From a virus: DNA of 48,875 nucleotides. This document shows positions 1,431-48,352 of this stretch, piece after piece (the stretch's first letter is position 1; each line of letters opens with the position of its first letter). Location of the stretch: positions 1-48,875 of IMG/VR virus record IMGVR_UViG_3300009537_000023, one strand, 5' to 3'. The translations under genes and the position numbers were made by a program. The notes under the pieces are model-generated. The model was given only the letters and a program-made list of their open reading frames with translations, had not been told where the DNA came from and ran no database searches.

Positions 1431-3386
1431 TTGGAGCCTATAGATTTCCTCAAGCTCGTCTGGAACGGGCAAGAGGGCTTTGTCTTTCTTCCACGAAAGG
1501 CTAAGCGTTGGTCAGAAGGCTCGGCCTTCGAGTGGCCGCAGGATGCTGACAAGATAGAGGCCCACATTGAACGACATTCATCAAAAGCCGACCTGTACTA
1601 CACGCCAAATACTTTCAGTCAACCTGATAGACGGCGTGAGTATGTCAAGAACCCTCATTGGCTCTACGCCGATCTTGATACAGTATCGCCATCGAAACTG
1701 GCGGTCAGGCCCCAGCTTGCGGTACAGTCATCGCCTGGAAGGTTTCAATCTTTATGGCGCCTCGCTAGAGCTATCGACCCGGGTAAACATGAGACCTACA
1801 ACCAAAGGCTGACATATGCCACAGGAGCAGACAGGGGTGGATGGGATCTTACACAGGTACTTCGTATACCCGGGACAATCAACCACAAGTATCCGGGTCG
1901 AGTTAAGGTTCGACTTGCCTGGAGCGAGCCAGATAAAACATCGCTTACCAAGGTCAAGAAGTTCCTTGACGGTGTTGAGGCTAATCTTGAGAGCTTGGGT
2001 CCCATTGTACCGCCTGATCTTCGCTTACCAGCAGAGTCAAGTAAGGATTTACGCAAGCGGTTCAGCGGAGCTTTTGATGCCCGAACCAAAGAGCTCCTCG
2101 ATCAGACAGAAGAACCACCAGTAGGTGAAAGATCAGACAGGCTGTGGGAGTTAGAGTGCCGCCTGCTAGAGATTGGCCTCGAGCCCGAGGAGGTTTTCGT
2201 TGTCGTTAAGAATTCGGTCTGGAACAAATACATACAACGCCCAGATGGTGACTTGGCACTATGGCGGGAGGTGCAGAAGGCTCATCTTCATGTTGGCATT
2301 GTCATCCAAGAGAGCGTGGCACCAGTTAGTAATGGGCCTACACGTGCCCGACCAAGAGTGCTTAGTTACGCCGACATTCTGGGATCCGCAATTCGAGAAC
2401 CAGATTGGGCAATTGAGGAGTGGTGGACGTTGGGCTCGCACGGTATTCTGGCTGGACTTCCAAAATCATTCAAGAGCCTGGTCGCTACAGATATGGCCGT
2501 TTCTCTTGCAAGTGAAACGCCATTCCTGGGTCAGTTCAGCGTTAACCCAAGAGCGGTGGGTCCGGTTCTCATGGTCCAGCAGGAGAATAGCCTCGCACTG
2601 GTCCGTGATCGCCTCCTTAAAATCAGCCATAGCCGGGGGTTGCAGACAGGTACTGCATCCTTACACGATGCCTCGATAGATTTCAAGCCGCCGCCATCAA
2701 TACCGATCCTGTTTTACAACGACTTCGGTTTTGATATGACCAATGGAGATGACCGAGAATCCATAGAAGAAGTTATCCGTAATAATGGTGTGAAGACGGT
2801 GTTCTTTGATCCATTATATTTGATGATTGGTGGTGCAGATGAGAACGTGGCTAAGGAAATGCGTCCGATACTCACATGGCTCCTACGGATTAGGAACCTA
2901 TACAACTGTGCGGTGGTGGTCATTCACCACTGGGGTAAGAGTCAACCGGGCAGGGGTGGTCGTGGAGTTGGAGGCACCCGACTCCTCGGGTCTACGACGA
3001 TTTACGGCTGGCTCGAAGCAGCCTTATACCTGGAGGCAAGACACTCTACCTTGGACGGCGGGGGAGTACAGGTGGTGGTTGAGCGTGAGTTTCGGGAGAG
3101 ACCCTCAGCGCCGCCTATGGCTTTCGATTTGTCGATGGCCGACGTGGGCAAACTCGGATATGAGTGGTCAGGCGTGGGCGCAGTTGGTACAACCAACCGA
3201 CTCATTGAGGCAATTCAGAAGGCGGGGCCGAAGGGAGCAACTCTAGCCTTCGTTAGAGGTCAACTCGAATGGGGGCAGAAGAAAGCCAGAAAGGAGATAG
3301 ATGCCCTGATAGAAGAAGGAATTGTGTATGAGGAGCAGACGGGGAAGAGCAAGCGTGTCTTCCTGAGACCAGGATTTGGAGACTAA
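1431..3386 (+). CDS. bifunctional primase-polymerase (prim-pol/RepB-like) plus RepA/RecA-like helicase ATPase
   Basis: The N-terminal half has LYADLD (acidic metal motif), QSSPGRFQSLW and LRIPGTINHKY (prim-pol motifs). The C-terminal half has GLPKSFKS (Walker-A-like), VFFDPLYLM (Walker B) and VVVIHHWGKS, as in AAA_25/RepA-type proteins. TTG start. Confidence 0.8.
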   Translation: MEPIDFLKLVWNGQEGFVFLPRKAKRWSEGSAFEWPQDADKIEAHIERHSSKADLYYTPNTFSQPDRRREYVKNPHWLYADLDTVSPSKLAVRPQLAVQSSPGRFQSLWRLARAIDPGKHETYNQRLTYATGADRGGWDLTQVLRIPGTINHKYPGRVKVRLAWSEPDKTSLTKVKKFLDGVEANLESLGPIVPPDLRLPAESSKDLRKRFSGAFDARTKELLDQTEEPPVGERSDRLWELECRLLEIGLEPEEVFVVVKNSVWNKYIQRPDGDLALWREVQKAHLHVGIVIQESVAPVSNGPTRARPRVLSYADILGSAIREPDWAIEEWWTLGSHGILAGLPKSFKSLVATDMAVSLASETPFLGQFSVNPRAVGPVLMVQQENSLALVRDRLLKISHSRGLQTGTASLHDASIDFKPPPSIPILFYNDFGFDMTNGDDRESIEEVIRNNGVKTVFFDPLYLMIGGADENVAKEMRPILTWLLRIRNLYNCAVVVIHHWGKSQPGRGGRGVGGTRLLGSTTIYGWLEAALYLEARHSTLDGGGVQVVVEREFRERPSAPPMAFDLSMADVGKLGYEWSGVGAVGTTNRLIEAIQKAGPKGATLAFVRGQLEWGQKKARKEIDALIEEGIVYEEQTGKSKRVFLRPGFGD

Positions 3387-3849: not shown

Positions 3850-4258
3850 TCAGTTTGAGGTATTGAGACAGCACCTGGAAAGAATGGAGGGCAAGCTGAA
3901 CCAGATACTTGACCATCTGGGAGCAGACCTTGACTTGAGTGAGGAGGCTGACCCCGGACCAGGAAAGAATCCTGTACCTCGCAAAAACCCAGCGGCAACT
4001 AGAACCCATGTTGAGGTTCATACCGTAAGCGGAGATGTAGAGATGGTGCCATGGACCGAGATAGATGATCGGATTATCGAAGCCGTTAGGCTTAGCTCCG
4101 AACGTCAGACTCAGTGGGAGCTTTACCGTGATCCCAATGGCATGATTCGAGTCTCTGTGGACGCCGCCATAGCTCAGGAATTGCGTACGATCGATCGATC
4201 AGATCAAGCTCCTGTGCCTAACGTTCAGGGCTTCGATGCTCTGGGTGTGGATGAGTAA
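3842..4258 (+). CDS. hypothetical protein (138 aa)
   Basis: ORF track. Tightly packed, with its ATG overlapping the end of the previous gene. Confidence 0.5.
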   Translation: MASQFEVLRQHLERMEGKLNQILDHLGADLDLSEEADPGPGKNPVPRKNPAATRTHVEVHTVSGDVEMVPWTEIDDRIIEAVRLSSERQTQWELYRDPNGMIRVSVDAAIAQELRTIDRSDQAPVPNVQGFDALGVDE

Positions 4259-5723
4259 GTTCAAGCCCAAGGTCAAGTCTTATGACCATCAGAGGAAGTT
4301 TGTAAAGTGGGTATGGAACAAAACAAAGTACCCTGGCGTTGGGGATTCGGGTGGTGGCGCCTTCTTCGACCCAGGTACTGGGAAAACCAAGACTGCCTAC
4401 GACTTTATATCTGCTTCCTACGTCCACAGGAAGATGAGGCGGGTCCTAGTGATCTGCCCGATCAATGCGATCCAAGTCTGGGACGCTCAGGCGGATGAGC
4501 ATATCCGAGATGAGATTCCATTTCGAGTGATGATCCCCGAGGGAACCATTGCAGAGAAGACCGAAACCGTGAGCAACTGGAAAAGCATTGCGGATGATGA
4601 TGACCTGATGATTGTGGTCTTGAACTATGCAGCCGTGATAAAGCGAGACAAGAAGTGGGCCATCATGAAAACCCTCGAGGCCTATAACCCAGACCTTGTC
4701 GTGGTCGATGAAAGCCACCATATTAAGAACGCCACCGCCAAACAGAGCAAGGCTGTTCACAGGGTGTGTGAGAAAGCCGAGCATGTGATGATCCTGACAG
4801 GTACACCGATAGGCAAGAATTATCTGGATCTTTACAGCCAGCTGAAAGCCATAGATCCTGACATCTGGAAAGCAGACTGGACTAAGACAGGTACTATGTC
4901 ATGGACCAATTTCAGGAACGAGTACGGCATCTTCGGGGGCAGAACTGGTTACGAACTGAAGGGCTATCGCAACCTCGATGATCTGCGAGACCGCTACATG
5001 CCTCATATTCGTACCGCTCGCAAAGAGGACATACACGATATGCCGAAGGTCACAGACACCATTGTTCCTGTGGAGATAGGTGCCTCCGCTCGCCGGGTCT
5101 ATGATGTCCTCGCTGAAGAAGGTTTAGTAGTCCACAAAAGACACCTTATAGATGCGCCGATACCGCTCACCAAGCTGTTGAGGCTACAGCAGATCACAGG
5201 AGGATGGGTACATGACGAACACGGTGAGGTCGTGGAAGTTCAGAGGGACAAGTTATCCATACTGGCCGATTTACTTTCAGACCTCCACTCCGCTGGCCAG
5301 TCGGTTGTCGTGTTTGCTCGGTTCCTCGCCGAGCTTGAAGCGATTTCCGCAGTTAGTCCTTATAAGTGGGTTCAGTCGATACAAGGAGGTGTATCTCAGC
5401 AGCAGAGAAAGTCCCGGGTTGTTGCCTTTTCAGGAAGCAATGATCCGAAGATGTTGGCCATCCAAATATCCGCAGCAGAGGCCTTAGATGGATTACAAAC
5501 CAATTGCTCCTACGGGGTTTTTTATTCGACGGATTACAGTCTCATCCACTGGAACCAAGCGAGAGGACGTATCGATAGAGTTGGACAGAGAAGGCCGGTT
5601 ACTTTCTATCACCTGCAGGTCAAAGAAAGCGTTGATAGCCTCATATTTCAGGCCCTTAGGGACAAAAAAAACATCGAAAGGATCGTGATGAATGATCCGG
5701 CCGTACTTCTCAGGGGTTTGTAG
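4236..5723 (+). CDS. SNF2-family DNA-dependent ATPase/helicase
   Basis: DPGTGKTKTA (motif I), VVVDESHHIKN (motif II, DExH), LTGTPIGKNYLDLYSQL (motif III), QARGRIDRVGQ (motif VI). An alternative start is ATG 4251. Confidence 0.85.
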   Translation: MLWVWMSKFKPKVKSYDHQRKFVKWVWNKTKYPGVGDSGGGAFFDPGTGKTKTAYDFISASYVHRKMRRVLVICPINAIQVWDAQADEHIRDEIPFRVMIPEGTIAEKTETVSNWKSIADDDDLMIVVLNYAAVIKRDKKWAIMKTLEAYNPDLVVVDESHHIKNATAKQSKAVHRVCEKAEHVMILTGTPIGKNYLDLYSQLKAIDPDIWKADWTKTGTMSWTNFRNEYGIFGGRTGYELKGYRNLDDLRDRYMPHIRTARKEDIHDMPKVTDTIVPVEIGASARRVYDVLAEEGLVVHKRHLIDAPIPLTKLLRLQQITGGWVHDEHGEVVEVQRDKLSILADLLSDLHSAGQSVVVFARFLAELEAISAVSPYKWVQSIQGGVSQQQRKSRVVAFSGSNDPKMLAIQISAAEALDGLQTNCSYGVFYSTDYSLIHWNQARGRIDRVGQRRPVTFYHLQVKESVDSLIFQALRDKKNIERIVMNDPAVLLRGL

Positions 5724-5776: not shown

Positions 5777-6376
5777 ATGCCAATCATTGTTCTTGAGGGA
5801 CCCGACGAATCCGGGAAGACAACCCTCGCCACAAAGCTTCGAGACACCTTGGAGCCTGTGATTGATACCGAATACCAGCGCAGTCCTGTTCGTGAGCATG
5901 GCTGGTCTGAGCAGTACAACAACTACCTCATCAACCAGTCCAGAGCAATAGGTCATCTGCTTGTTCAGGACAGGATCCCAGAGATAAGCGAGTCGGTCTA
6001 TGGCTTCATGCGAGGTGAGCCTCGTACTCATGGCTGGGTTTATGAAGCAGGCGACTGGTTTCATCAGCCGATATTCATGGTCTTTTGTGAGGGGCCAGGT
6101 ATCCTTCAAACCACACACAAGGATGCAGAAGGTCTTGCAATAGCCCACGCTGAGGTGGCCTTGTTATATGACTACACCTATTGGCTACTTGAACAGACCT
6201 CCATCATGGCACGGATGACTGAGTTCAAGGTGGTCAAGTACAACCGCTTCAGTGATGACCAGTCGGAGTTCTTCTGGAGTCTTCTCCAGTGGCTGACGTT
6301 CTGCTTCCCGCACCGTAGGGTTGAGTTCGTCAAAGCAGTAGCGCCTCTCATAGAAAGGAACCCAAATGAGCTTTGA
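5777..6376 (+). CDS. thymidylate-kinase-fold (d)NMP kinase
   Basis: P-loop IVLEGPDESGKTTLA at the N-terminus. VQDRIPEISESVYG resembles the TMK DR..S..AYQ motif. Confidence 0.7.
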   Translation: MPIIVLEGPDESGKTTLATKLRDTLEPVIDTEYQRSPVREHGWSEQYNNYLINQSRAIGHLLVQDRIPEISESVYGFMRGEPRTHGWVYEAGDWFHQPIFMVFCEGPGILQTTHKDAEGLAIAHAEVALLYDYTYWLLEQTSIMARMTEFKVVKYNRFSDDQSEFFWSLLQWLTFCFPHRRVEFVKAVAPLIERNPNEL

Positions 6377-6722
6377 AGGCGAGGCATGGTTGCCGGGCGA
6401 TATGCTCAACACCTTCCAGAATGTATGCCATAAGCCTTGGCTGGAGCACAACTTCCCACAGCAGCAGCCGCATGATGCCCTGCTTGGGCTAGTTGAGGAA
6501 GTAGGCGAGCTAGCTCATGCCCATTTGAAGATGGAGCAGGGGATTAGAGGCATGGATGATGAAATCAGGTTTAGAACCGATGCTTATGATGCCATCGGAG
6601 ATATCCTGATCTACCTTGCCAGCTACTGCAACACCAACGGCTTCGAGATGGACACAGCCCTTTACCGAGCATGGGAGGAGGTACGCAAACGTGACTGGCA
6701 AGAGCGACCAACTACGGGATGA
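6366..6722 (+). CDS. MazG-like all-alpha nucleoside triphosphate pyrophosphohydrolase
   Basis: LLGLVEEVGELAHAHLK...DAIGDILIYLASYC matches the paired EExxE / DxxxD helices typical of MazG/HisE-type NTP-PPases. Confidence 0.8.
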   Translation: MSFEGEAWLPGDMLNTFQNVCHKPWLEHNFPQQQPHDALLGLVEEVGELAHAHLKMEQGIRGMDDEIRFRTDAYDAIGDILIYLASYCNTNGFEMDTALYRAWEEVRKRDWQERPTTG

Positions 6723-6987
6723 TCGAGGAATATACCCGAAGTATGTGGTTTTCAAGCACCCAGCCTTTATAGCCGCTAGTTACACCGCAGTAGCCAGGGA
6801 GTTTTCAGAGGAGTTCAGCCCGGCCGTAGAACTTGTAGAAGTCGAGGACTTTGTGTTTGTCCTGAAGCCCCTGAAAGATCGAGCCGCCCGGTTAGCTATG
6901 GCTGTCTACGCAGAGGCAGTCCGTCACGAGAAGCCACGACTTGCTGCGGAGTTGAACGAGATTCTGGACGACTTCGATGGATCCTAA
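6691..6987 (+). CDS. hypothetical protein (~98 aa), GTG start
   Basis: The frame is open from 6616 but overlaps the MazG gene. GTG 6691 is the first plausible start. The body reads YVVFKHPAF...DFVFVLKPLKDRAARLAMAVYAEA. Confidence 0.45.
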   Translation: MTGKSDQLRDDRGIYPKYVVFKHPAFIAASYTAVAREFSEEFSPAVELVEVEDFVFVLKPLKDRAARLAMAVYAEAVRHEKPRLAAELNEILDDFDGS

Positions 6988-7201
6988 TACCGAGAAACTC
7001 TACACCCAGGAAGATGTGGAGAAGATGACAAATGAGGAGAAGTCAAAGCTCCTCTGGATTTCTCGCCGGGAGTATGAAGTCCTGAAGCATATTGAGGAGG
7101 GCAAGAGAAGAAAGGCTCTTGACAAGATGAGGCGTAAGGCAGAGAAGTCCAAAAGGCAGAAGCGTAAGGCCCAAAGACAAGCGAGGAAAAAGAACCGATG
7201 A
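6977..7201 (+). CDS. Lys/Arg-rich coiled-coil protein (74 aa)
   Basis: ORF track. C-terminus RRKAEKSKRQKRKAQRQARKKNR. Tightly packed between its neighbours. Confidence 0.45.
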   Translation: MDPNTEKLYTQEDVEKMTNEEKSKLLWISRREYEVLKHIEEGKRRKALDKMRRKAEKSKRQKRKAQRQARKKNR

Positions 7202-7380
7202 GGAAACCAAAACACATAAAGTCACCCCCACATCGGTGGGGTGATGGGAAGGTTCATCTACTAATCAAGGCCTCCGGCGGCTTCTATAAAGCCTGTGAAG
7301 GGATTACTAAAACTACTCCTTACCATCGAGGAGAAGAAACAACAGATCCCATCACCTGTAAAAGGTGCTTGAAAGGATGA
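7198..7380 (+). CDS. small Cys-containing protein (60 aa)
   Basis: ORF track. ATGA overlap with the previous gene. C..(n)..CKRC. Confidence 0.4.
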   Translation: MRKPKHIKSPPHRWGDGKVHLLIKASGGFYKACEGITKTTPYHRGEETTDPITCKRCLKG

Positions 7381-8225
7381 GCTTCAAGGTACTTAGAGCC
7401 CCAGACCTCACACAGCTATGGCATGATGTAGTCAGATGGCATCTATACAAGGAAGAAGTAGACCTTGATCTGAGCATCGGTACCAATCTGTACAACGTCA
7501 TCCTAGAAGCGGACTCGGCTGAGTACGACTTCAACCTGCAAGAGGTGTGGTTGAATAGTGCCCGATGGACCAGGCTCATCCGTGAGTACATCGATCCCTT
7601 GGACGCATCAGATTTTGTCCGCAATGCGAGGATCATCTTCGAGACAAAGGGAAAAAATGGAGTCATTACGAATATGCCTTTCCGGCCGGTTGAGCGTCGA
7701 GCGGATCTACGAAGGCACAAGTGGGGGAACTGCCTTTTGGCAGCGACATTTCGAGGCACACCACAGAGTGACGTCCGGCCCACACTTACCCTCCATTCCA
7801 GAGTTTCGTATAATGGGTATATGCTCGGACTCGACATGGGAATTGCTAATGTCCTTGCTAGAGAAATCACCGAAGGAGTACCGTCTGAGGTTAGAGTTCA
7901 ATGGCATCTTGATGTCACTCAACTCCACTCATTCAAATCCTTGCCCTATCTCTACACCCAGCCGGACTTGATGGAGGTGCTTGAGTCACGCCCTTCTGAG
8001 ATGGCAATGGTTGCTATGAAGTACCCTACTTGGGCTCGCATTCTGAAATGGTGGGAGAAGGTTCTTGAGTTCGACGGCACGAAGTCTGTGGAGGCAGAGT
8101 TGTATGGGCCCTTCCGACGCATCCGCAAACGTTATGCCGAGTACAAAGACGGCAAGCTAGTGCCGAGTGTTCACATCTCGGAACTGGACTTCAGCAAACT
8201 TGGAGAAAGCTATGACCCTAATTAA
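7377..8225 (+). CDS. divergent thymidylate-synthase-fold protein (paralog 1)
   Basis: WGNCLLAATFRG...PTLTLHSRVSYNGYMLGLDMGIANVL...VQWHLDVTQLH parallels the ThyA layout PCH..FQFYV...L.CQLYQRS.DVFLG.PFNIASYALL...GD.H.Y. The Cys is kept but the RS.D signature is degenerate. ATG 7377 overlaps the previous stop (ATGA); GTG 7365 is an alternative start. Confidence 0.55.
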   Translation: MSFKVLRAPDLTQLWHDVVRWHLYKEEVDLDLSIGTNLYNVILEADSAEYDFNLQEVWLNSARWTRLIREYIDPLDASDFVRNARIIFETKGKNGVITNMPFRPVERRADLRRHKWGNCLLAATFRGTPQSDVRPTLTLHSRVSYNGYMLGLDMGIANVLAREITEGVPSEVRVQWHLDVTQLHSFKSLPYLYTQPDLMEVLESRPSEMAMVAMKYPTWARILKWWEKVLEFDGTKSVEAELYGPFRRIRKRYAEYKDGKLVPSVHISELDFSKLGESYDPN

Positions 8226-8982
8226 GACCAACAATGTCAAGTATGCCTTGCACAACCTGAGGACAGAGTTCCTTCAGATGGGCAAGACAGTGGATCGAGG
8301 TGAATGGCAGAGTCTCAAAGACAGACCACAGAGCCAGGTCTTTGAGGTCCATGATGCGTCTTTCCGAGTCGTTGTTCCAGAAAGCGTGATCGGTTGGCAG
8401 AACGAGTGCAAGCCAAATCTTCCATGGGCTGAGGATCATTTTCAAGAGCGGGTCAGTGGTAAGCCATTGAACCCGGGCGAGCAGTACAAGAATTGGCCTT
8501 GGTACGAGCAAGGGGTCGAGGATCACAAACCCGGGGGCAAGTTCAGTCACACCTACATGGAAAGATTCTGGCCGTCTGGGTCTTTTGGAAATCTTGACCA
8601 TGTAGTTGAACTCCTAATTGATCGACCATTTACCCGACAGGCATACCTCACTGTATGGTGGCCCCACGATGCTCGTATAGCCCTTGAAGGTGAACGTGTG
8701 CCTTGTACGTTGGGCTATCACTTCCTTGCTTATCCGGGGCCGGACGATCGTCCCTTGCTACGGGCCACATACTTCATGCGGTCATGTGACTGGTTCCGTT
8801 ACCTGCGTGATGATCTTTACATGGCTGGCAGATTGCTTCAATGGGTGGCAAAGCAAACGAACATGGATCCTACCATGTTGACGATGCACATTGCCAATCT
8901 CCACATCTTCAACCAAGAAGTTCCTCGACTTCGCCAAGAACATGCGGATGCAGAGAAAGAGAGGTTGTCCCATGCTTTCTGA
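8212..8982 (+). CDS. thymidylate-synthase-family pyrimidine methylase/hydroxymethylase (dCMP-hydroxymethylase-like, paralog 2)
   Basis: LIDRPFTRQAYLTVWWP (the ..SRR...saWnp equivalent), VPCTLGYHFL (catalytic Cys strand), YFMRSCDWFRYLRDDLYMAGRL (QRS.D....PFN equivalent, with Asp where ThyA has Asn), MHIANLHIF (GD.H.Y equivalent). RBS GGAGAAAG lies before ATG 8212. Confidence 0.75.
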   Translation: MTLIKTNNVKYALHNLRTEFLQMGKTVDRGEWQSLKDRPQSQVFEVHDASFRVVVPESVIGWQNECKPNLPWAEDHFQERVSGKPLNPGEQYKNWPWYEQGVEDHKPGGKFSHTYMERFWPSGSFGNLDHVVELLIDRPFTRQAYLTVWWPHDARIALEGERVPCTLGYHFLAYPGPDDRPLLRATYFMRSCDWFRYLRDDLYMAGRLLQWVAKQTNMDPTMLTMHIANLHIFNQEVPRLRQEHADAEKERLSHAF

Positions 8983-9532
8983 CCATCATTTCTTAGCAGT
9001 GGCTCATATCGTCGCCGACGCCGGGACTTGTTCGAGGCTCAAAGTAGGGGCAGTCCTGGTATATGCCCGGCGCATTATTTCCACAGGATACAACGGGGCA
9101 CCTGCGGGAATGCAGCATTGTGACCATATCCATGCGGATAAACAAATGTGGGATCAAGGAGGAAAGGGATGCGATACCGCAGTCCATGCCGAGGTCAATG
9201 CCATTGCGTTCGCTGCGAAGCACGGAGTAGCGACCACTGGGTCCACTTTGTATACCACAGATTCGCCGTGCGTATCGTGCGCCCAACTAATCATCAATGC
9301 TGGCATAAAGGAGGTGAAGTATGGCAGAGAGTATCGAATCCCCGCAGGCATCATTCTCCTTGAAAGAGCTAGCATCAGAACTGAAAGGCTTGGCGAACCC
9401 CAACTGCAACTTGTGTCCGTTACATCAGGAGACGGAGAGGGTGTGCATCCCAGTCAACATGCCGACGAGGCGTTTGACCAAGGATGGTCAGAGTATGCGG
9501 CTTCTCGTCGTGGGGGAAGCGCCCGGATATAA
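8972..9532 (+). CDS. dCMP deaminase (zinc-dependent cytidine/deoxycytidylate deaminase family)
   Basis: VHAEVNAI (H-A-E zinc/catalytic motif), TDSPCVSCAQLIINAGIKEV (PCxxC), STGYNGAPAG. I chose ATG 8972 (MLSDHH...) over ATG 8891. The last 212 nt overlap the polymerase gene. Confidence 0.85.
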   Translation: MLSDHHFLAVAHIVADAGTCSRLKVGAVLVYARRIISTGYNGAPAGMQHCDHIHADKQMWDQGGKGCDTAVHAEVNAIAFAAKHGVATTGSTLYTTDSPCVSCAQLIINAGIKEVKYGREYRIPAGIILLERASIRTERLGEPQLQLVSVTSGDGEGVHPSQHADEAFDQGWSEYAASRRGGSARI

Positions 9533-11801
9533 TGAGGAACAAACGGGTCGTCTATTCTCAGGCAATGCCGGGCAACTACTTGATCAGGCTCTAGGGGAAG
9601 TAGGGCTTAAACGTGATTGGTTCTTCGTAACCAATGCGGTCAAGTGTCGCCCGGCAGAGAACCGAACTCCATCAGCGAAGGAGGTTCGGACTTGCTCATC
9701 GACCTACCTCAGCCAGGAAATCGCTGCCATTGAACCACAGTACGGGTTGGTATTGGGCAACAGTGGGTGCCAAGCGGTCTTCGGCAAGAAAGGTATAACG
9801 AGACTCAATGGACAGGTGATCGAGAAGTACGGTGTGAAGTGGGTCGCCGCATTCCACCCGGCTGCTGTCTTGAGGAACCCTCGCTATCGCAAGTCCTTCA
9901 TGGGGGCCCTGTTAGTATTGGCCCGCTTGATCCGTGATGAAGAAGGTGCACCTAATACCGATACGGTTCTAGTCAATGACAAGGAGACCCTCAGACAACT
10001 CCTTACTGAGTTGGAAAATGGTGAGGTAGCTTCGGTTGACGTAGAAACCTGGTCTTCTCATCCAAAGGTGGGGAGATTCAAGGGCGGTGGTCTAGCGTGG
10101 TGGGCTGATGACTTCTGTGTGACCACTATCAACTTCTCCTTTAAGCCGGGCTATGCCTATGTTCTACCCCTAGCCCATGATAAGGCAAGATGGAAAGACT
10201 GGACTAAAGTCCGTGACATCATCAAGCCATACATGGAAGCTCTGCCTTACTGGGTGATGCACAATGGCAAATATGACTCCAAATGCCTAGAGATGATTGG
10301 CATTCACATGCGCCACAGTTTTGATACGATGGGAGCCGAGTATGCGCTGGATGAGAACAACGTCAAAGACCTGGGTTTCCTTAGCCAAGTATATCTTGCG
10401 GCCCCCGAGTACAAGGAGTTGGTCGACAAGACCAATCTCAAGTCAGAGGATCTCGACCTCATGGCAGAGTACGGAGGAAAAGACGCCGACTACACCTATC
10501 GGCTGCGACCGCTACAGATTCGACGGCTGAAGACAGAGGGTCTATCACGACGGCTTTACGAGAAGCTACTGCACCCCTCAGATTTAGTCCTGACAAACGT
10601 GGAGCTCCGAGGCATGCCAGTGGATCATTCCAAGCTTGTGGAACGAGCAAGAGAGTGTGACCAGAACATAGCCGAAGCGAAGGAGAAGATTTATGCCACC
10701 ACAGGTTGGGAATTTAACATTAATTCCCCAGCCCAACTCGGTGATATCCTTTTCAACCGACTGGACTTCCCAGTTCTGGAAACAACAAAAACCGGTGCTC
10801 CTTCAACCAGAGAAGGCGTACTTATCGCTCTCAAAACCCTTGATGATGAGGGACTCATTGAGCGGATCCTTGACTATCGAAAGTGGAAAGGTTACCGTTC
10901 ACGATACCTCAACCCGTGGCCGGAACTGGCTGATAGTGAATGGCGGCTGCATCCTCACTTCAAACCGTTTCATACTGTCACTGGGAGGCTATCCTGCGAG
11001 CATCCTAATATGCAACAAGTCCCTAGAGATACATTTATCCGTGGGATTATTGGGGGTAATCCTGGTTGGGTGATTCTCGAAGCGGACTACAGCCAAGCCG
11101 AGATGCGCCTGGCGGGTCACTACTCACAGGATTCAACCATGCTGAGGGTCTTCAATACAGGTCGTGACGTTCACATGGAGACGGCAATGTCTATCACAGG
11201 TCTGGCTCAACATGAGGTGACATCTGAGCAGAGAAAGATGGCGAAGGCTGTTAACTTCGGCTTCTTGTATGGCATGGGCTGGCACAAGTTCATGGACTAT
11301 GCAAAGGAGAACTATGAGTTGGACGTTTCTGAAGCTGAAGCGAAGGTGGCTCGCAAGGAGTTCTTCCGACAGTTCCGTAGTTTACCTGGGTGGCATGATC
11401 GTCAACGTAAGAAGGCCCGCAAGAACGGTTATGTACTATCCGCTATCGGTAGAAAGCGTCACCTACATGATATTCGGTCCACAAATGAGGGCATACGTCA
11501 AGAGGCTGAACGCCAGGCCATCAACTCACCAGTTCAAAGCCTTGCATCGGATATGATGCTCCTCGCCATGATACAACTGGAAGAGCAGCTTGACCCAAAC
11601 GAGTGCCGCATCATCTCCACAGTACATGACTCCATTCTGTTCGAGGTGAGAGAGGATCTGGTCTACAAGTACATTCCGATAGTTAAGGCTGGTCTCGAGG
11701 AGGTGCCGCTAGAAAAGGAATTTGAATGTATACTCACCGTGCCTATTGTGGCTGACATCAAATATGGTTCCCACTGGTCAGAGGGAGCAGTTGAGGTTTG
11801 A
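9321..11801 (+). CDS. family A DNA polymerase with 3'-5' exonuclease and an N-terminal family-4 uracil-DNA glycosylase domain
   Basis: UDG4: CNLCPLH, VVGEAPGYNEEQTGRLFSGNAGQLL, VKCRP, AFHPAAVLRNP. Exonuclease: VDVETWS, HNGKYDSKCL, YGGKDADYTYRL. Polymerase: ILEADYSQAEMRLAGHYS (motif A), RKMAKAVNFGFLYGM (motif B), VHDSILFEV (motif C). Strong RBS AAGGAGGTGAAGT before the ATG. Confidence 0.9.
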   Translation: MAESIESPQASFSLKELASELKGLANPNCNLCPLHQETERVCIPVNMPTRRLTKDGQSMRLLVVGEAPGYNEEQTGRLFSGNAGQLLDQALGEVGLKRDWFFVTNAVKCRPAENRTPSAKEVRTCSSTYLSQEIAAIEPQYGLVLGNSGCQAVFGKKGITRLNGQVIEKYGVKWVAAFHPAAVLRNPRYRKSFMGALLVLARLIRDEEGAPNTDTVLVNDKETLRQLLTELENGEVASVDVETWSSHPKVGRFKGGGLAWWADDFCVTTINFSFKPGYAYVLPLAHDKARWKDWTKVRDIIKPYMEALPYWVMHNGKYDSKCLEMIGIHMRHSFDTMGAEYALDENNVKDLGFLSQVYLAAPEYKELVDKTNLKSEDLDLMAEYGGKDADYTYRLRPLQIRRLKTEGLSRRLYEKLLHPSDLVLTNVELRGMPVDHSKLVERARECDQNIAEAKEKIYATTGWEFNINSPAQLGDILFNRLDFPVLETTKTGAPSTREGVLIALKTLDDEGLIERILDYRKWKGYRSRYLNPWPELADSEWRLHPHFKPFHTVTGRLSCEHPNMQQVPRDTFIRGIIGGNPGWVILEADYSQAEMRLAGHYSQDSTMLRVFNTGRDVHMETAMSITGLAQHEVTSEQRKMAKAVNFGFLYGMGWHKFMDYAKENYELDVSEAEAKVARKEFFRQFRSLPGWHDRQRKKARKNGYVLSAIGRKRHLHDIRSTNEGIRQEAERQAINSPVQSLASDMMLLAMIQLEEQLDPNECRIISTVHDSILFEVREDLVYKYIPIVKAGLEEVPLEKEFECILTVPIVADIKYGSHWSEGAVEV

Positions 11802-11908: not shown

Positions 11909-12919
11909 GTGCCACTGAATATATCCCACTCGGAACTGAAAACGTTCCGCCGATGTAAGCGCCAGTATTTTTATAAGGTAGTTGAGGGGCTAGAGCCCCG
12001 CCTTACAGACCCCAAACTCAAGTTCGGTATTTGGTTCCATGAATTGATGCGAGCCTATTACGAAGGCAAAGACTGGAAGAAGGCACATGAACAGGAACTC
12101 AAGAAATTCAACAACCTTTTCCTAGAGGAGAGAGAGTTCTACGGCGATCTACCTGACCTGGCCGAGCGCATGATGTTCTCCTACCTGTGGACATATCGCA
12201 ACGAAGACCCCGAGTGGGAGGTTCTCTATGTGGAGGAGAACTTCAAGGTCAAATTTACCGAAGGTGATGTATTCGGGTTCAAACCTGACTTGATTGTTGC
12301 CGACAAGCGTGGCGATGTATGGGTAGTGGATCACAAGACCACTCGATCTATACCCAGTAGTGAATGGCGACTGGTCGATCTGCAATCCACGCTGTATCCC
12401 TGGGCATTGAGAGAGGGGATGGACTTAGATATAAAGGGGTTCATCTTCAACTATATCCGTCGCAAAGCACCGAGCATCCCCAAGATCAACAAGGACGGCT
12501 CAATTAGTCGGGCAAGAGTCGATACCGATTATCCAACAATGGCTAAGTTCCTCATCGAATACTTCGAGGTTGAGACGGTGAAAGAACTGCCCACAGAGTG
12601 GAAGAAGCGCCTGGCTAATCTCAAATTGGAATCAAAGTTTTTCAAGAGGACTCGTATTACCAAAGATGATGCCCTCATCAATCGCCAGATCGAGGAGTTC
12701 TCATACACCGCTCAGGAACTTGAATCGTGGCTTGAGCTATCAGAGGAACAAGACATCGACCCGTGGGTACGCACGATGATCCCGTCCTGTGAATGGGACT
12801 GTGAGTTCTATGACCTATGCACCCTTGAATTACTAGGCCAGGACAGCAAGTTCATGCGGCGTAGTAAATACCAGCCGAGTCAATACCAGAAGGAGAGAAG
12901 GCGTGGCAGCGAAGACTAA
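11909..12919 (+). CDS. PD-(D/E)XK exonuclease with a Cas4/AddB-like Fe-S cysteine set
   Basis: FKPDLIVADKRGDVWVVDHKT (D...D-x-K nuclease core). One N-terminal Cys (FRRCKRQY) plus the C-terminal CEWDCEFYDLC. GTG start. Confidence 0.8.
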   Translation: MPLNISHSELKTFRRCKRQYFYKVVEGLEPRLTDPKLKFGIWFHELMRAYYEGKDWKKAHEQELKKFNNLFLEEREFYGDLPDLAERMMFSYLWTYRNEDPEWEVLYVEENFKVKFTEGDVFGFKPDLIVADKRGDVWVVDHKTTRSIPSSEWRLVDLQSTLYPWALREGMDLDIKGFIFNYIRRKAPSIPKINKDGSISRARVDTDYPTMAKFLIEYFEVETVKELPTEWKKRLANLKLESKFFKRTRITKDDALINRQIEEFSYTAQELESWLELSEEQDIDPWVRTMIPSCEWDCEFYDLCTLELLGQDSKFMRRSKYQPSQYQKERRRGSED

Positions 12920-13739
12920 GGGTAAGATCGACAAGCCCATGAAGGCTAGTGCTAAGCAATTGGCTAGACTTAAAGCCATTGAATCCATGATGCAGCCTGT
13001 GGGCTCAATCGTGGAGCTTCTTCACAGCCTGATCTGGGGTCGAGTCAAGTCTGGCAAGACTAAGTTCATTGCCTCTGGTCCCAAACCTGTAATTTTCGCC
13101 GCAGAAGATGGCACACGAACCATTCGTGACTTTCCTGATGTAACCGTTTTCCCTGTCACTGGCGATGGTAAGTATATTCCGCCAAGATGGAAGCACGCTC
13201 GGGATTTCATCTGGTACCTAGACAAAGCCGATCACGACTTTGGCACAGTAGGCGTGGACACAATGACTGCCCTGTCTCGTATTGCCATTCGATTCGTTAC
13301 CAAAGATGAGGAGTTGAGGGATGATCTGAGAGCCAAGGGCACCATGGATTATCGGGTGTGGAATCGAGTGACCCGCCTGATTACCGAGTTCATGGAAGAC
13401 TTGGAGGGAGTGTGCAAGGCCAGAGGAATGCACCTGGTGTATACCTGCCAAGAATTATCTTTGGATGAGGAGAAAGCATTGCGTGAGGGTTCATCAATTG
13501 TGCCTGATCTAACACCTAAATTGAGAGGAGCCATTCTTGAAAAGCCCGACATCATCGCAAGGACAATTATAGAGGAGGAAGAAAGTGAGGATCTCAGCAA
13601 AGCCACCCTGAAGTATGGCATGGTGTTCAAGCACCACGAATGGCCCGTAGGTTTACGGGAACCAGCAAGCAAGAAACCGATGCCCGCCAGAGTTTATGGC
13701 GACATCACAATCCCCAAGCTCCTAAGGAGGCTTAGTTAA
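12903..13739 (+). CDS. RecA-fold ATPase, Sak4/AAA_24-like recombination protein
   Basis: Walker A GRVKSGKTKF and Walker B GTVGVDTM. It sits between the exonuclease and the SSB-like gene. Confidence 0.65.
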   Translation: MAAKTKGKIDKPMKASAKQLARLKAIESMMQPVGSIVELLHSLIWGRVKSGKTKFIASGPKPVIFAAEDGTRTIRDFPDVTVFPVTGDGKYIPPRWKHARDFIWYLDKADHDFGTVGVDTMTALSRIAIRFVTKDEELRDDLRAKGTMDYRVWNRVTRLITEFMEDLEGVCKARGMHLVYTCQELSLDEEKALREGSSIVPDLTPKLRGAILEKPDIIARTIIEEEESEDLSKATLKYGMVFKHHEWPVGLREPASKKPMPARVYGDITIPKLLRRLS

Positions 13740-46914: not shown

Positions 46915-47150
46915 TGGAGAATTTTGTTATAGGTCTGTTGATAACCAATCTGGTCACTCTGACCATTACCTATAGATATGCCACCAAGGCGGGCATTCTG
47001 ATGGAGTTGATCGAGAAAAGTCCGTCTATTTGCTTCGAGTGCGGGGCCAATCACCAGCGAATAGCTGTTGCGGCATTTGCTCATAGGTTCACCCCTATAA
47101 AGGCCGTGATAGACCCCGGGTACCTCCGGCATGCCCAGGACCAAGAGTGA
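46914..47150 (+). CDS. small protein with an N-terminal TM helix (78 aa)
   Basis: MENFVIGLLITNLVTLTITY. Start and stop codons overlap (TAATG). Confidence 0.45.
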   Translation: MENFVIGLLITNLVTLTITYRYATKAGILMELIEKSPSICFECGANHQRIAVAAFAHRFTPIKAVIDPGYLRHAQDQE

Positions 47151-47179
47151 CCGTCACAAACACCCAGATAGGAGCATAT

Positions 47180-47530
47180 ATGGCCAAAGAAAGCGAGGAG
47201 CATCTCACCTTGACAAGATACCTATCCCTGACCTCGGATGCCCAGTTCATAGCATTGCTGTGGAAAAATAAGGCCGAGTGTACCCGGCGGATAGAAGCCC
47301 ATCCTGAGCATTACCGGGCTATGGATTGGTTCCCTATTGCCACAGGGGAGGTTCCATTTCATGTGCAGGAGGTATGTAATGTGTGCCCCGTTAGGGTTGA
47401 ATGCCTGGCGTATGCCGTCTTTACCCATCAATCCGACGGGATATGGGGAGGAAGATCTGTAAAGTCCATAAAGCGAATCCGAAGAAAGATACAGGCCGCA
47501 ATAAGGAGGCAAAATGTCCGACCGAGATGA
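47180..47530 (+). CDS. whiB: WhiB-like (Wbl) Fe-S transcription factor
   Basis: Four Cys in Wbl spacing (AEC ... VCNVCPVRVEC), followed by the signature GIWGG turn and a basic C-terminal tail (KRIRRKIQAAIRRQ). RBS AGGAG lies 6 nt before ATG 47180. Confidence 0.8.
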   Translation: MAKESEEHLTLTRYLSLTSDAQFIALLWKNKAECTRRIEAHPEHYRAMDWFPIATGEVPFHVQEVCNVCPVRVECLAYAVFTHQSDGIWGGRSVKSIKRIRRKIQAAIRRQNVRPR

Positions 47531-47897
47531 GAAATTCCAAGCCCAGCCAAGAGTGATCCACATTCCTTCAGATGAGGACGTACCGTCTGGTTGGCCGGCT
47601 CTGGAACAGGAGTGGCCATCTGAGAGCAAGAAAGCCCCACTCATTGGACCCACTCAGGACTTTCCACGGGCAGAGGTCATTCGGGGGGAGTTCATGGATA
47701 TGGGTCCAGAGGAGCTTCGGATCTACATGCTCAGAGCGGCTCTGGATCTGACTACAGATGGGTACCACATACTCAAGAGGGCTATTGGGTTCCTGAGGGT
47801 CGTAGCTCCTGATACCTATGACAGGTACAAGGGCCTGTCCGAGAAGGTGTTCGCTATGCTGGAGTCAATTGAGTTCATCTTGGAGGAACAGGAATGA
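47514..47897 (+). CDS. hypothetical protein (127 aa)
   Basis: ORF track. It ends ...LEEQE inside the conserved junction. Confidence 0.5.
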   Translation: MSDRDEKFQAQPRVIHIPSDEDVPSGWPALEQEWPSESKKAPLIGPTQDFPRAEVIRGEFMDMGPEELRIYMLRAALDLTTDGYHILKRAIGFLRVVAPDTYDRYKGLSEKVFAMLESIEFILEEQE

Positions 47898-47899
47898 GC
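47882..47899 (+). repeat. gene-junction repeat, copy 1 (GGAGGAACAGGAATGAGC)
   Basis: It shares GAGGAACAGGAATGAG with the copies at 48359 and 48544, and contains both the stop of one gene and the start of the next. Confidence 0.7.
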
Positions 47900-48352
47900 A
47901 CCTATGACAGCCTTGAAGACACGTTGGCCCACGGAGATCGGGTCAACGAATTAATGCAAGACCTGATAGACGATCTGGTTGTTCGTGGAGAGACACACGA
48001 CCTCTCCAAAACTCATCCGCCCGAGAAGGCCACCTTTGACGAGTACACGCCGAAGCTGAAGCACTCCACCTACGGGTCAGAAGAGTACAAGGGCTTCTTG
48101 AAAGCAATGGGTGAAGCGCTAGAACACCATTACGCCAACAACCGTCACCATCCCGAACATTTCGAGAACGGCATCAACGACATGACCCTTGTTGACCTGA
48201 TCGAGATGCTGGCCGATTGGAAGGCTGCAACTGAGAGACACGACGACGGCTCGCTTCCTCGCAGTTTGGAGATACAGCAGGAACGATTCGGAATCTCAGA
48301 GCAGCTAATCAAGGTTCTCAACAACACGGCGTCGCATTATGGGTGGCTGTGA
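47894..48352 (+). CDS. His-rich putative metal-dependent (HD-like) protein (152 aa)
   Basis: HDLSK...LEHHYANNRHHPEHF...EMLADWKAA has conserved-looking His/Asp clusters. The family assignment comes from memory of uncharacterised phage/Firmicute proteins and was not verified. Confidence 0.45.
   Translation: MSTYDSLEDTLAHGDRVNELMQDLIDDLVVRGETHDLSKTHPPEKATFDEYTPKLKHSTYGSEEYKGFLKAMGEALEHHYANNRHHPEHFENGINDMTLVDLIEMLADWKAATERHDDGSLPRSLEIQQERFGISEQLIKVLNNTASHYGWL

Follow-up and report, generated by a model that had tools for sequence, protein, structure and literature searches.

A conserved two-gene cassette in a probable deoxypyrimidine-pool module of phage: a thymidylate synthase homologue and a partner of thymidylate-synthase-like predicted fold

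Why would a phage carry, side by side, two genes whose products both resemble thymidylate synthase (TS), and is the first of the two still an enzyme? The question is raised by the IMG/VR virus record IMGVR_UViG_3300009537_000023, a phage-like contig of 48,875 bp that was analysed whole (hereafter the window) and whose left arm, at about 0.3-15.7 kb, lies on the + strand. The original prediction had described two tandem, highly diverged TS-fold paralogs in this arm, the first with a degenerate active site, and had proposed either that the pair forms a heterodimer or that the first protein modifies the same nucleotide at C5 by another chemistry. Reading the DNA directly, we found both open reading frames (ORFs) to be real:

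7377..8225, + strand, protein 1, 282 amino acids (aa) from its ATG, a member of phrog_13667
8212..8982, + strand, protein 2, 256 aa, a member of PF00303

The genes overlap by 14 nucleotides (nt), the protein 1 TAA lying at 8223-8225 and the protein 2 ATG at 8212, and a GGAGA stands 5 nt before that ATG; a GTG at 7365 is likewise open as a start for protein 1. Overlap and GGAGA agree with the coupled expression that had been proposed, and to judge from the DNA the two genes are translationally coupled in the window. The reading we prefer, which we hold with about equal measures of belief and doubt, is that they form a two-gene cassette within a deoxypyrimidine-pool module, in which protein 2 is a one-carbon transferase acting on deoxycytidine monophosphate (dCMP) and protein 1 a second, Cys-dependent and folate-independent enzyme.

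Protein 2 is assigned by its sequence to the Pfam TS family (PF00303, E=3.7e-10, 39.9 bits against a cutoff of 24.3, residues 121-243); it also matches phrog_160, 'thymidylate synthase' (6e-31), and weakly the archaeal TS model TIGR03283 of NCBIfam (5e-11). Its AlphaFold2 (AF2) model has a predicted local distance difference test score (pLDDT) of 85.3, and Foldseek searches of the Protein Data Bank (PDB) with this model retrieved AfhB as the best match, followed by MilA and many TS entries (E=1.9e-13 to ~1e-11, template modelling (TM) scores 0.6-0.73). A search for relatives yielded 3509 proteins. Residue equivalences were taken from a HMMER alignment to P. carinii TS and from the family alignment, and are given in E. 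coli numbering; invariants were read from 31 family members. The main positions and their codons are as follows:

8704-8706, + strand, protein 2 C165, equivalent to E. coli C146
8779-8790, + strand, protein 2 R190-S191-C192-D193, equivalent to E. coli R166-S167-C168-D169
8812-8814, + strand, protein 2 Asp201, invariant and preceded by an invariant Asp200, equivalent to E. coli N177

Pro-Cys (P164-C165) and the R190-S191-C192-D193 motif for phosphate and folate binding are invariant across the 31 members, as is R142, which stands at E. coli R126, and H231 stands at H207. Thr166, Phe233 and Gln143 occupy the positions of His147, Tyr209 and Arg127, and on account of these replacements and of Asp201 at Asn177 protein 2 is not classed as ThyA proper.

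In TS, Asn177 serves uracil recognition. An Asn177-to-Asp change switches the preference of TS from deoxyuridine monophosphate (dUMP) to dCMP (PMC8670742; PMC13326640). In MetaGPA, residue 177, along with position 147, was most strongly tied to modified-cytosine contigs, on which D177 homologues are enriched together with PRA-PH and dCMP deaminase genes (PMC8670742). Two NEB studies place D177 homologues beside dCMP-deaminase-family genes, PRA-PH/MazG-type pyrophosphatases and PolA on modified-cytosine contigs in particular, a context that marks phages in which 5-methyl- or 5-hydroxymethylcytosine replaces cytosine. Of the deaminases on modified contigs, 70% have a TS homologue within 3 kb, as against 6% on unmodified contigs, five of seven such homologues gave 5-methyl-dCMP (5mdCMP) in E. 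coli, and the linked deaminase B5 (mSCD-B5) turned the 5-methylated deoxycytidine triphosphate (5mdCTP) into thymidine triphosphate (dTTP), as proposed for Xp12 and PaMx74 (bioRxiv 10.1101/2024.12.05.627091). Protein 2 has the features by which dCMP-directed TS homologues are recognised in that study, namely Asp at 177 and linked genes for a deaminase, a nucleoside triphosphate (NTP) pyrophosphatase and DNA polymerase I (PolA). The residue at L143 separates enzymes with a methyl product from those with a hydroxymethyl product; in protein 2 an insertion of 3-4 residues ahead of the Cys makes its equivalent ambiguous (Arg162 by position, Leu158 by HMMER alignment), so that either product is conceivable.

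Residues ~85-125 of protein 2 (8464-8586; PLNPGEQYKNWPWY...FSHTYMERFWP) hold many of the family's invariants, yet have the lowest confidence in the AF2 model (pLDDT 49-67). Conserved but poorly modelled, this segment would fit a lid or interface that becomes ordered with a ligand or a partner.

Protein 1 belongs to a family of another kind. It matches phrog_13667, of unknown function (1.1e-39), all 85 matching phage records in GenBank are labelled 'hypothetical protein', and the family comprises 282 clusters at 50% identity among 1.84 billion representatives. The AF2 model of protein 1, built on 42 homologues (pLDDT 94.7, predicted TM score 0.91), points to a TS-like fold. In Foldseek searches of the PDB the top 50 matches were all TS-family chains with a probability of 1.00, the best being AfhB, the dCMP hydroxylase of phage HY126 (9iqu, E=2.5e-6, TM 0.42/0.53), and the next MilA, TS and the T4 dCMP hydroxymethylase (6l18). 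In the viral library BFVD, the best matches were three uncharacterised proteins (TM 0.62-0.72), one of them A0A2I6PI74 of Pseudomonas phage PMBT14 (TM 0.62-0.66); annotated TS and dCMP-hydroxymethylase proteins come next, and most of the significant matches are of these kinds. In the model, a strand from Cys119, a strand with Arg142, a helix whose first turns hold Asp153 and a strand ending in H184-x-F186 follow one another, a predicted order that reproduces the TS core (strand-Cys, strand-Arg, helix-Asp(+11), strand-His-x-Phe). The helical segment of TS at 66-110 (Trp80/Trp83) is without counterpart in the model, and a C-terminal helical extension of ~70 residues (~189-257) bears a conserved R248. 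The proposal that both proteins have the TS fold thus stands, for protein 2 by PF00303 and for protein 1 by the AF2 model with Foldseek. It does not extend to a recognisable tandem duplication: hhalign of the two family profiles, run with 42 sequences and again with 119, stayed under 1% probability, so that no sequence similarity between the supposed paralogs is detectable.

The motifs of protein 1 are WGNC(119)LLAATF and LHS-R142-V-S-Y145...D153, and four of its residues are putative equivalents of catalytic positions in TS:

7587-7589, + strand, protein 1 Y71, putative equivalent of Tyr94
7731-7733, + strand, protein 1 C119, putative equivalent of Cys146
7800-7802, + strand, protein 1 R142, putative equivalent of Arg166
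7833-7835, + strand, protein 1 D153, putative equivalent of Asn177

The spacing of 11 from Arg to Asp equals that of R166-N177 in E. coli TS and of R190-D201 in protein 2. Across 119 cluster representatives, one per 50%-identity cluster, G117, C119, R142 and W176 are 100% conserved, R63, S141 and D153 at least 97%, and R248 90%. When the set was extended by a PMBT14-like subfamily to 136 sequences with 13-43% identity to protein 1, Y71, G117, C119 and R142 remained invariant and D153 was conserved in at least 90%. Invariance over sequences this divergent means that the motif match exceeds chance, and since the putative Tyr, Cys and Arg are invariant and the Asp conserved, protein 1 would be an active enzyme and not a regulatory pseudo-enzyme. 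The description of its active site as degenerate is accordingly given up for that of a different active site. The particular residues that had been noted as lost are indeed replaced: Val143 and Tyr145 stand at Ser167 and Asp169, with Val/Thr and Tyr/Phe at these positions family-wide, so that protein 1 appears to be without the folate-side signature. What it keeps is a putative set for Michael addition at C6, namely Cys, an Arg to position it and to bind phosphate, Tyr and an acidic residue by which cytosine would be recognised, and the conservation of this set favours the second of the original proposals, a different C5 chemistry, over a regulatory subunit.

The PMBT14-like subfamily has the motif GFC...YYRSTE...D(+11), which is nearer to the QRSxD of TS than is that of protein 1. 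It aligned to the protein 1 family by hhalign with 66% probability (E=5.6e-5) and with Cys, Arg and Asp in register, and by its sequence it appears to connect the family to TS-like motifs. Two GenBank records label members of this subfamily 'pyrimidine hmase synthase', which probably comes from a superfamily-level domain match; our literature searches for this label and for the function of the protein 1 family found nothing.

A further, divergent subfamily of 254-aa protein-1-like proteins was seen (loci L134 2493-3254, L105 2861-3646, L131 846-1607 and L140 1312-2076), with the motifs LSRLRESY, LKC and VFRNTE....YMD. Its genes lie ~700 nt upstream of a protein-2-type gene, with an ORF of 131-143 aa between. 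Being barely detectable with profile hidden Markov models (HMMs; E~0.003), it suggests that the superfamily exceeds the 282 clusters counted.

A survey of related phages, which had been proposed as a check on the pair, showed it to be conserved. All 58 loci that were found through the protein 1 family and have downstream sequence carry a protein 2 family gene downstream on the same strand. In the reverse direction, a sample of 80 IMG/VR loci found through the protein 2 family included 75 with upstream sequence, and a protein-1-like gene lies upstream in 69 of these (92%); 59 of the partners were HMM-detectable, one was found by unfiltered HMMs and nine belong to the 254-aa subfamily, with the signature R..Y / Cys / FRNTE..D(+11). 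The two families therefore co-occur almost universally and in a fixed order, protein 1 then protein 2. Carrier phages infect Microbacterium, Gordonia, Streptomyces, Mycobacterium, Pseudomonas, Serratia, Yersinia, Brevundimonas and Clostridium, that is, Actinobacteria, Proteobacteria and Clostridium, and because they span phages of three bacterial phyla the pairing is taken to be ancient. In cultured phages (Triscuit, SteamedHams, Zuko, FF47, Azira, NoShow, PMBT14, Serbin, Yersinia phage P744, Brevundimonas phage Polewnik and Clostridium phage CPD4) the order is kinase, NTP pyrophosphatase or dUTPase, protein-1-like gene, protein-2-like 'thymidylate synthase', usually a deaminase, and PolA. We found no published description of this arrangement, in agreement with the expectation that it would be undescribed.

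The same order is seen in the window, where the genes around the pair are the following:

5777..6376, + strand, P-loop protein like deoxynucleoside monophosphate (dNMP) or thymidylate kinases, 199 aa (phrog_761 'thymidylate kinase', 5.6e-9)
6366..6722, + strand, MazG-type nucleoside-triphosphate pyrophosphohydrolase, 118 aa (PF03819, 1.5e-4; phrog_715, 7e-11)
7198..7380, + strand, small ORF, 60 aa, whose TGA stop overlaps the protein 1 ATG (ATGA)
8972..9532, + strand, zinc deaminase of the dCMP-deaminase family, 186 aa from the ATG at 8972 (PF00383, 1.6e-22; phrog_174, 2.2e-50)
9321..11801, + strand, DNA polymerase I with an N-terminal family-4 uracil-DNA-glycosylase domain, 826 aa

The kinase-like gene, which opens the nucleotide-pool module, matches Pfam Thymidylate_kin and KTI12 weakly and has a counterpart at the same position in Triscuit, Zuko, FF47, PMBT14, Serbin and P744. 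The MazG match is close to its threshold (PF03819, 22.4 bits against a cutoff of 22), and in relatives the MazG position is held by a MazG, a PRA-PH or a dUTPase-type enzyme. The 60-aa ORF matched no family in Pfam or PHROGs. The deaminase ATG at 8972 overlaps the protein 2 gene by 11 nt. The polymerase ORF matches NCBIfam PolA (6e-124) and UDG_fam4 (1.1e-36, 126.2 bits against a cutoff of 125.3), and the same architecture of glycosylase domain and PolA occurs in metagenomic relatives. The module fits the modified-cytosine gene context of the published systems gene for gene.

Two smaller observations concern these neighbours. A 123-aa ORF with a TTG start at 6616-6987 (+ strand) lies across the 3' end of the MazG gene in a different reading frame and, over residues 75-119, weakly matches phrog_9572, 'sulfatase-modifying factor enzyme' (1.2e-8). 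The polymerase ORF at 9321-11801, whose glycosylase domain has a GEAPG motif, covers the final ~212 nt of the deaminase ORF in a different frame, which would mean a non-conserved C-terminal tail on the deaminase or, alternatively, a polymerase start lying further downstream.

Following published precedent, protein 2 would take a one-carbon unit from methylene-tetrahydrofolate and place it on C5 of dCMP, giving 5-methyl- or 5-hydroxymethyl-dCMP. The kinase would take the modified dCMP toward the triphosphate, MazG would clear the competing canonical deoxynucleoside triphosphate, and the deaminase would feed the thymidine branch. In protein 1, Cys119 may attack C6 of a cytosine mononucleotide to form a C6 thioether, after which the enzyme would perform folate-independent chemistry at C5; its substrate would most plausibly be either the substrate or the product of protein 2, and it would act either as a separate enzyme or as a partner of protein 2 in a complex. 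A bolder version, which we offer tentatively and think rather improbable as a whole, is that the protein 1 family is a new class of folate-independent TS-fold enzymes that forms a two-step, possibly heteromeric and channelled system with a D177 TS homologue, in which protein 2 would add a one-carbon group to dCMP and protein 1, re-attacking C6 with Cys119, would turn this group or the base into a cytosine derivative undescribed in phage DNA.

The nearest known systems are the 5mdCMP synthases of Xanthomonas phage Xp12 and Pseudomonas phage PaMx74, along with the 5-methylcytosine-selective deaminases linked to them. The synthases are like protein 2 in having a TS fold, a Cys nucleophile, R-S-x-D and Asp at 177, and they share the context of NTP pyrophosphatase, TS homologue, dCMP-deaminase-family gene and PolA. 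Protein 2 nevertheless forms a clade separate from PaMx74 gp52, with N-terminal motifs of its own (NLPWAEDHF, FSHTYMERFWP) and with Thr, Phe and Gln for His147, Tyr209 and Arg127. The window also has an extra TS-fold gene and, among its scanned ORFs, no dihydrofolate reductase (DHFR), while PaMx74 is the reverse; canonical ThyA, ThyX, a glycosyltransferase and other tailoring enzymes were likewise not found among these ORFs. Phage T4 is similar in replacing the pool at the mononucleotide level, in using two TS-fold enzymes and in the Asp at 177 of gp42, the T-even scheme consisting of dCTPase, the hydroxymethylase gp42, dNMP kinase, dCMP deaminase and the td thymidylate synthase. However, T4's second TS-fold enzyme is a TS of the canonical kind, folate-dependent and specific for dUMP, and its gene is not linked to that of gp42. 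Unlike it, protein 1 lacks the folate Asp, has a putative Asp at 177, matches no TS profile and is apparently coupled to its partner gene. A mechanistic analogy, and only that, is offered by the clade 2 aGPT-Pplases of thymidine-hypermodifying phages (M6 gp51, ViI gp247), in which a conserved Cys adds to C6 of a pyrimidine already bearing a one-carbon group at C5 and this group is remodelled without folate (PMC8989533), and they are a possible model for protein 1 acting on the product of protein 2. Their fold is of the helix-hairpin-helix glycosylase type, their substrate is DNA in place of nucleotides, and they depend on a 5-hydroxymethyldeoxyuridine (5-hmdU) DNA kinase; the predicted fold of protein 1 is that of TS. 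An Ackermannviridae protein among the best BFVD matches prompted us to consider protein 1 itself as an aGPT-Pplase, which we rejected for its TS-like fold and the lack of any aGPT-Pplase match in Pfam.

Several observations weigh against the cassette reading. Searching the two proteins separately against profiles, as had been proposed, placed protein 2 in the TS family, but protein 1 was linked to TS by none of the Pfam, NCBIfam and PDB phmmer or profile searches, and PF00303 was absent from all 136 family members scanned singly, even at E<=10. Protein 1 is thus joined to TS through its predicted structure, with modest TM scores of 0.35-0.53 to PDB entries, and not through a sequence profile, and the equivalences of Y71 to Tyr94 and D153 to Asn177 were drawn from spacing and the order of secondary-structure elements. 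Six of the 75 protein 2 family loci have no partner within 4 kb on either strand, even by unfiltered HMMs. PaMx74 gp52, a 5-methylcytosine-type enzyme, is only 25% identical to protein 2 over ~106 core residues, and PaMx74 encodes DHFR and no protein 1 family gene, which indicates that known 5-methylcytosine phages manage without protein 1. Motifs of both families were sought in the supplements of the papers, and no tie of the assayed TS homologues to the protein 2 clade was found. Literature searches on DNA modification in FF47, Muddy, GTE2 and PMBT14 found nothing, and we found no experiment showing modified DNA in the window phage or its cultured relatives (Muddy/FF47, Emalyn-like Gordonia phages, PMBT14).

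Three of the six loci without a partner (L086, L100 and L101, from IMG/VR) have, in place of a protein-1-like gene, an ORF directly upstream whose product has an extremely acidic, Asp/Glu-rich C-terminal tail and resembles single-stranded-DNA-binding or DNA-mimic proteins.

Among the alternatives, the one that survives best, although we consider it unlikely, is that of an obligate heterodimer in which protein 2 is catalytic and protein 1 a regulatory or specificity subunit. TS is obligately dimeric, each subunit lending Arg126'/Arg127' to the active site of the other. At the position of the donated Arg, protein 2 has its invariant Arg142, and protein 1 has G92-K93-N94-G95, that is, Gly, Lys or Asn and no Arg; the strict co-occurrence and gene order, the overlap or spacing of at most 20 nt in 45 of 103 cassettes, and the conserved, low-confidence segment of protein 2 at residues 85-125, which fits a surface ordered by a partner or a ligand, would also agree with it. 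Yet the Cys, Arg, Asp and Tyr of protein 1 are conserved over very deep divergence, which is not expected of a purely regulatory subunit, and no natural fusion of the two proteins was found among the 150 best family representatives (maximum 371 aa). Moreover, the spacer exceeds 200 nt in 40 of the 103 cassettes, often with inserted ORFs, and these long spacers, together with the six loci in which no partner is detectable, argue against an obligate 1:1 complex.

We find it doubtful that the module serves ordinary thymidylate supply, with protein 2 a divergent thymidine monophosphate (dTMP) synthase fed by dCMP deaminase and a dUTPase or MazG enzyme, the kinase a thymidylate kinase, and protein 1 an accessory. 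This is how the genes are annotated in all cultured relatives (thymidylate kinase, dUTPase/MazG, thymidylate synthase, dCMP deaminase), the Azira genome announcement counts four thymine-synthesis genes (PMC10353413), and protein 2 keeps R-S-C-D along with its weak TIGR03283 match. However, Asp201 and the adjoining Asp200 are invariant at the Asn177 site, where a change to Asp switches TS to dCMP, His147 and Tyr209 are replaced, and D177 homologues in exactly such a context track modified-cytosine DNA. Microbacterium phage Triscuit (L001 4977-8054) bears directly on this point, having three TS-fold genes in a row: gp64 is a homologue of protein 1, gp66 of protein 2 (PF00303, 3.3e-7), and gp67 is a canonical ThyA (3.8e-123). 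As this canonical enzyme comes right after the protein 2 homologue, protein 2 is unlikely to be an ordinary dTMP synthase, and Triscuit is a natural test case for the non-redundancy of the TS-fold genes.

It seems a little less probable still that protein 1 is a flavin-dependent pyrimidine C5 hydroxylase like the 5-hydroxy-dCMP (5hodCMP) synthases RB69 gp48, DLP3 gp80 and HY126 AfhB. These are compact TS folds with N177D and a replaced Asp169, use the folate site for another cofactor, and in the published cases have D169N and a flavin in place of folate (PMC13326640); protein 1 likewise combines a putative Asp at 177 with loss of the folate-binding Asp169, and AfhB is its best PDB match. AfhB is, however, the best match of protein 2 as well, so the match probably reflects compact TS cores and not a shared function, and its TM score to protein 1 is only 0.42/0.53. 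In addition, protein 1 has Tyr/Phe and not the diagnostic D169N, no glycosyltransferase for a 5-hydroxyl was detected among the scanned window ORFs, and known 5-hydroxycytosine systems have a single TS-fold gene and not a pair. As 5hodCMP synthases proper both proteins were rejected, since D169N is missing in each (protein 1 has Y145/D153, protein 2 D193/D201).

That protein 1 is unrelated to TS, its fold likeness convergent or a modelling artefact and its Cys...Arg...Asp coincidental, is very improbable: every profile method missed TS, no TM score to a PDB TS entry reaches 0.55, and the model lacks the N-terminal folate-binding helices of TS and has a different helical domain at its C-terminus, but the top 50 PDB matches and most of the significant BFVD matches are TS or dCMP-hydroxymethylase at a Foldseek probability of 1.00, the core elements come in the TS order, the PMBT14-like subfamily is intermediate with its TS-like YYRSTE, and in over 100 loci the gene lies directly beside a genuine TS homologue.

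Returning to the cassette, what is known is that TS-fold enzymes remodel phage pyrimidine pools, and what is new is a cassette containing a family with no assigned function. Nearly every pre-replicative pyrimidine modification of phage DNA starts from an enzyme of this fold, and each chemistry so far found in it (hydroxymethylation, dCMP methylation and, recently, flavin-dependent hydroxylation) gave a new DNA base and tools. The protein 1 family, which keeps putative residues of covalent catalysis, has lost the folate site and carries no function in Pfam, PHROGs, NCBIfam or most GenBank records, would be missed by surveys that use PF00303 only, such as MetaGPA neighbourhood analyses. The question is directly testable, since relatives of the therapeutic phage Muddy and other cultured, tractable phages carry the cassette. 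If the reading is true, an undescribed cytosine derivative would be present in a large, therapeutically relevant lineage (Muddy-like mycobacteriophages and Emalyn-like Gordonia phages), and such an unsuspected base modification would bear on restriction evasion, sequencing and engineering.

A megablast search with positions 6000-10000 gave no nucleotide similarity to known phages. The remaining genes that we annotated in the window are:

1431-3386, + strand, primase/helicase
4236-5723, + strand, SNF2 helicase
11909-12919, + strand, Cas4-like exonuclease
12903-13739, + strand, Sak4-like annealing protein
47147-47530, + strand, WhiB-family transcription factor (PF02467, 3.8e-10)
47894-48352, + strand, DUF5662 protein (2.5e-37), just downstream of the WhiB gene

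The WhiB-type regulator suggests an actinobacterial host, although the G+C content of the contig is only ~51%. The cumulative GC skew climbs as far as ~16 kb, declines until ~42-46 kb and then climbs again, and its turns match the strand switches from the + strand early genes to a - strand structural block and back to the + strand.

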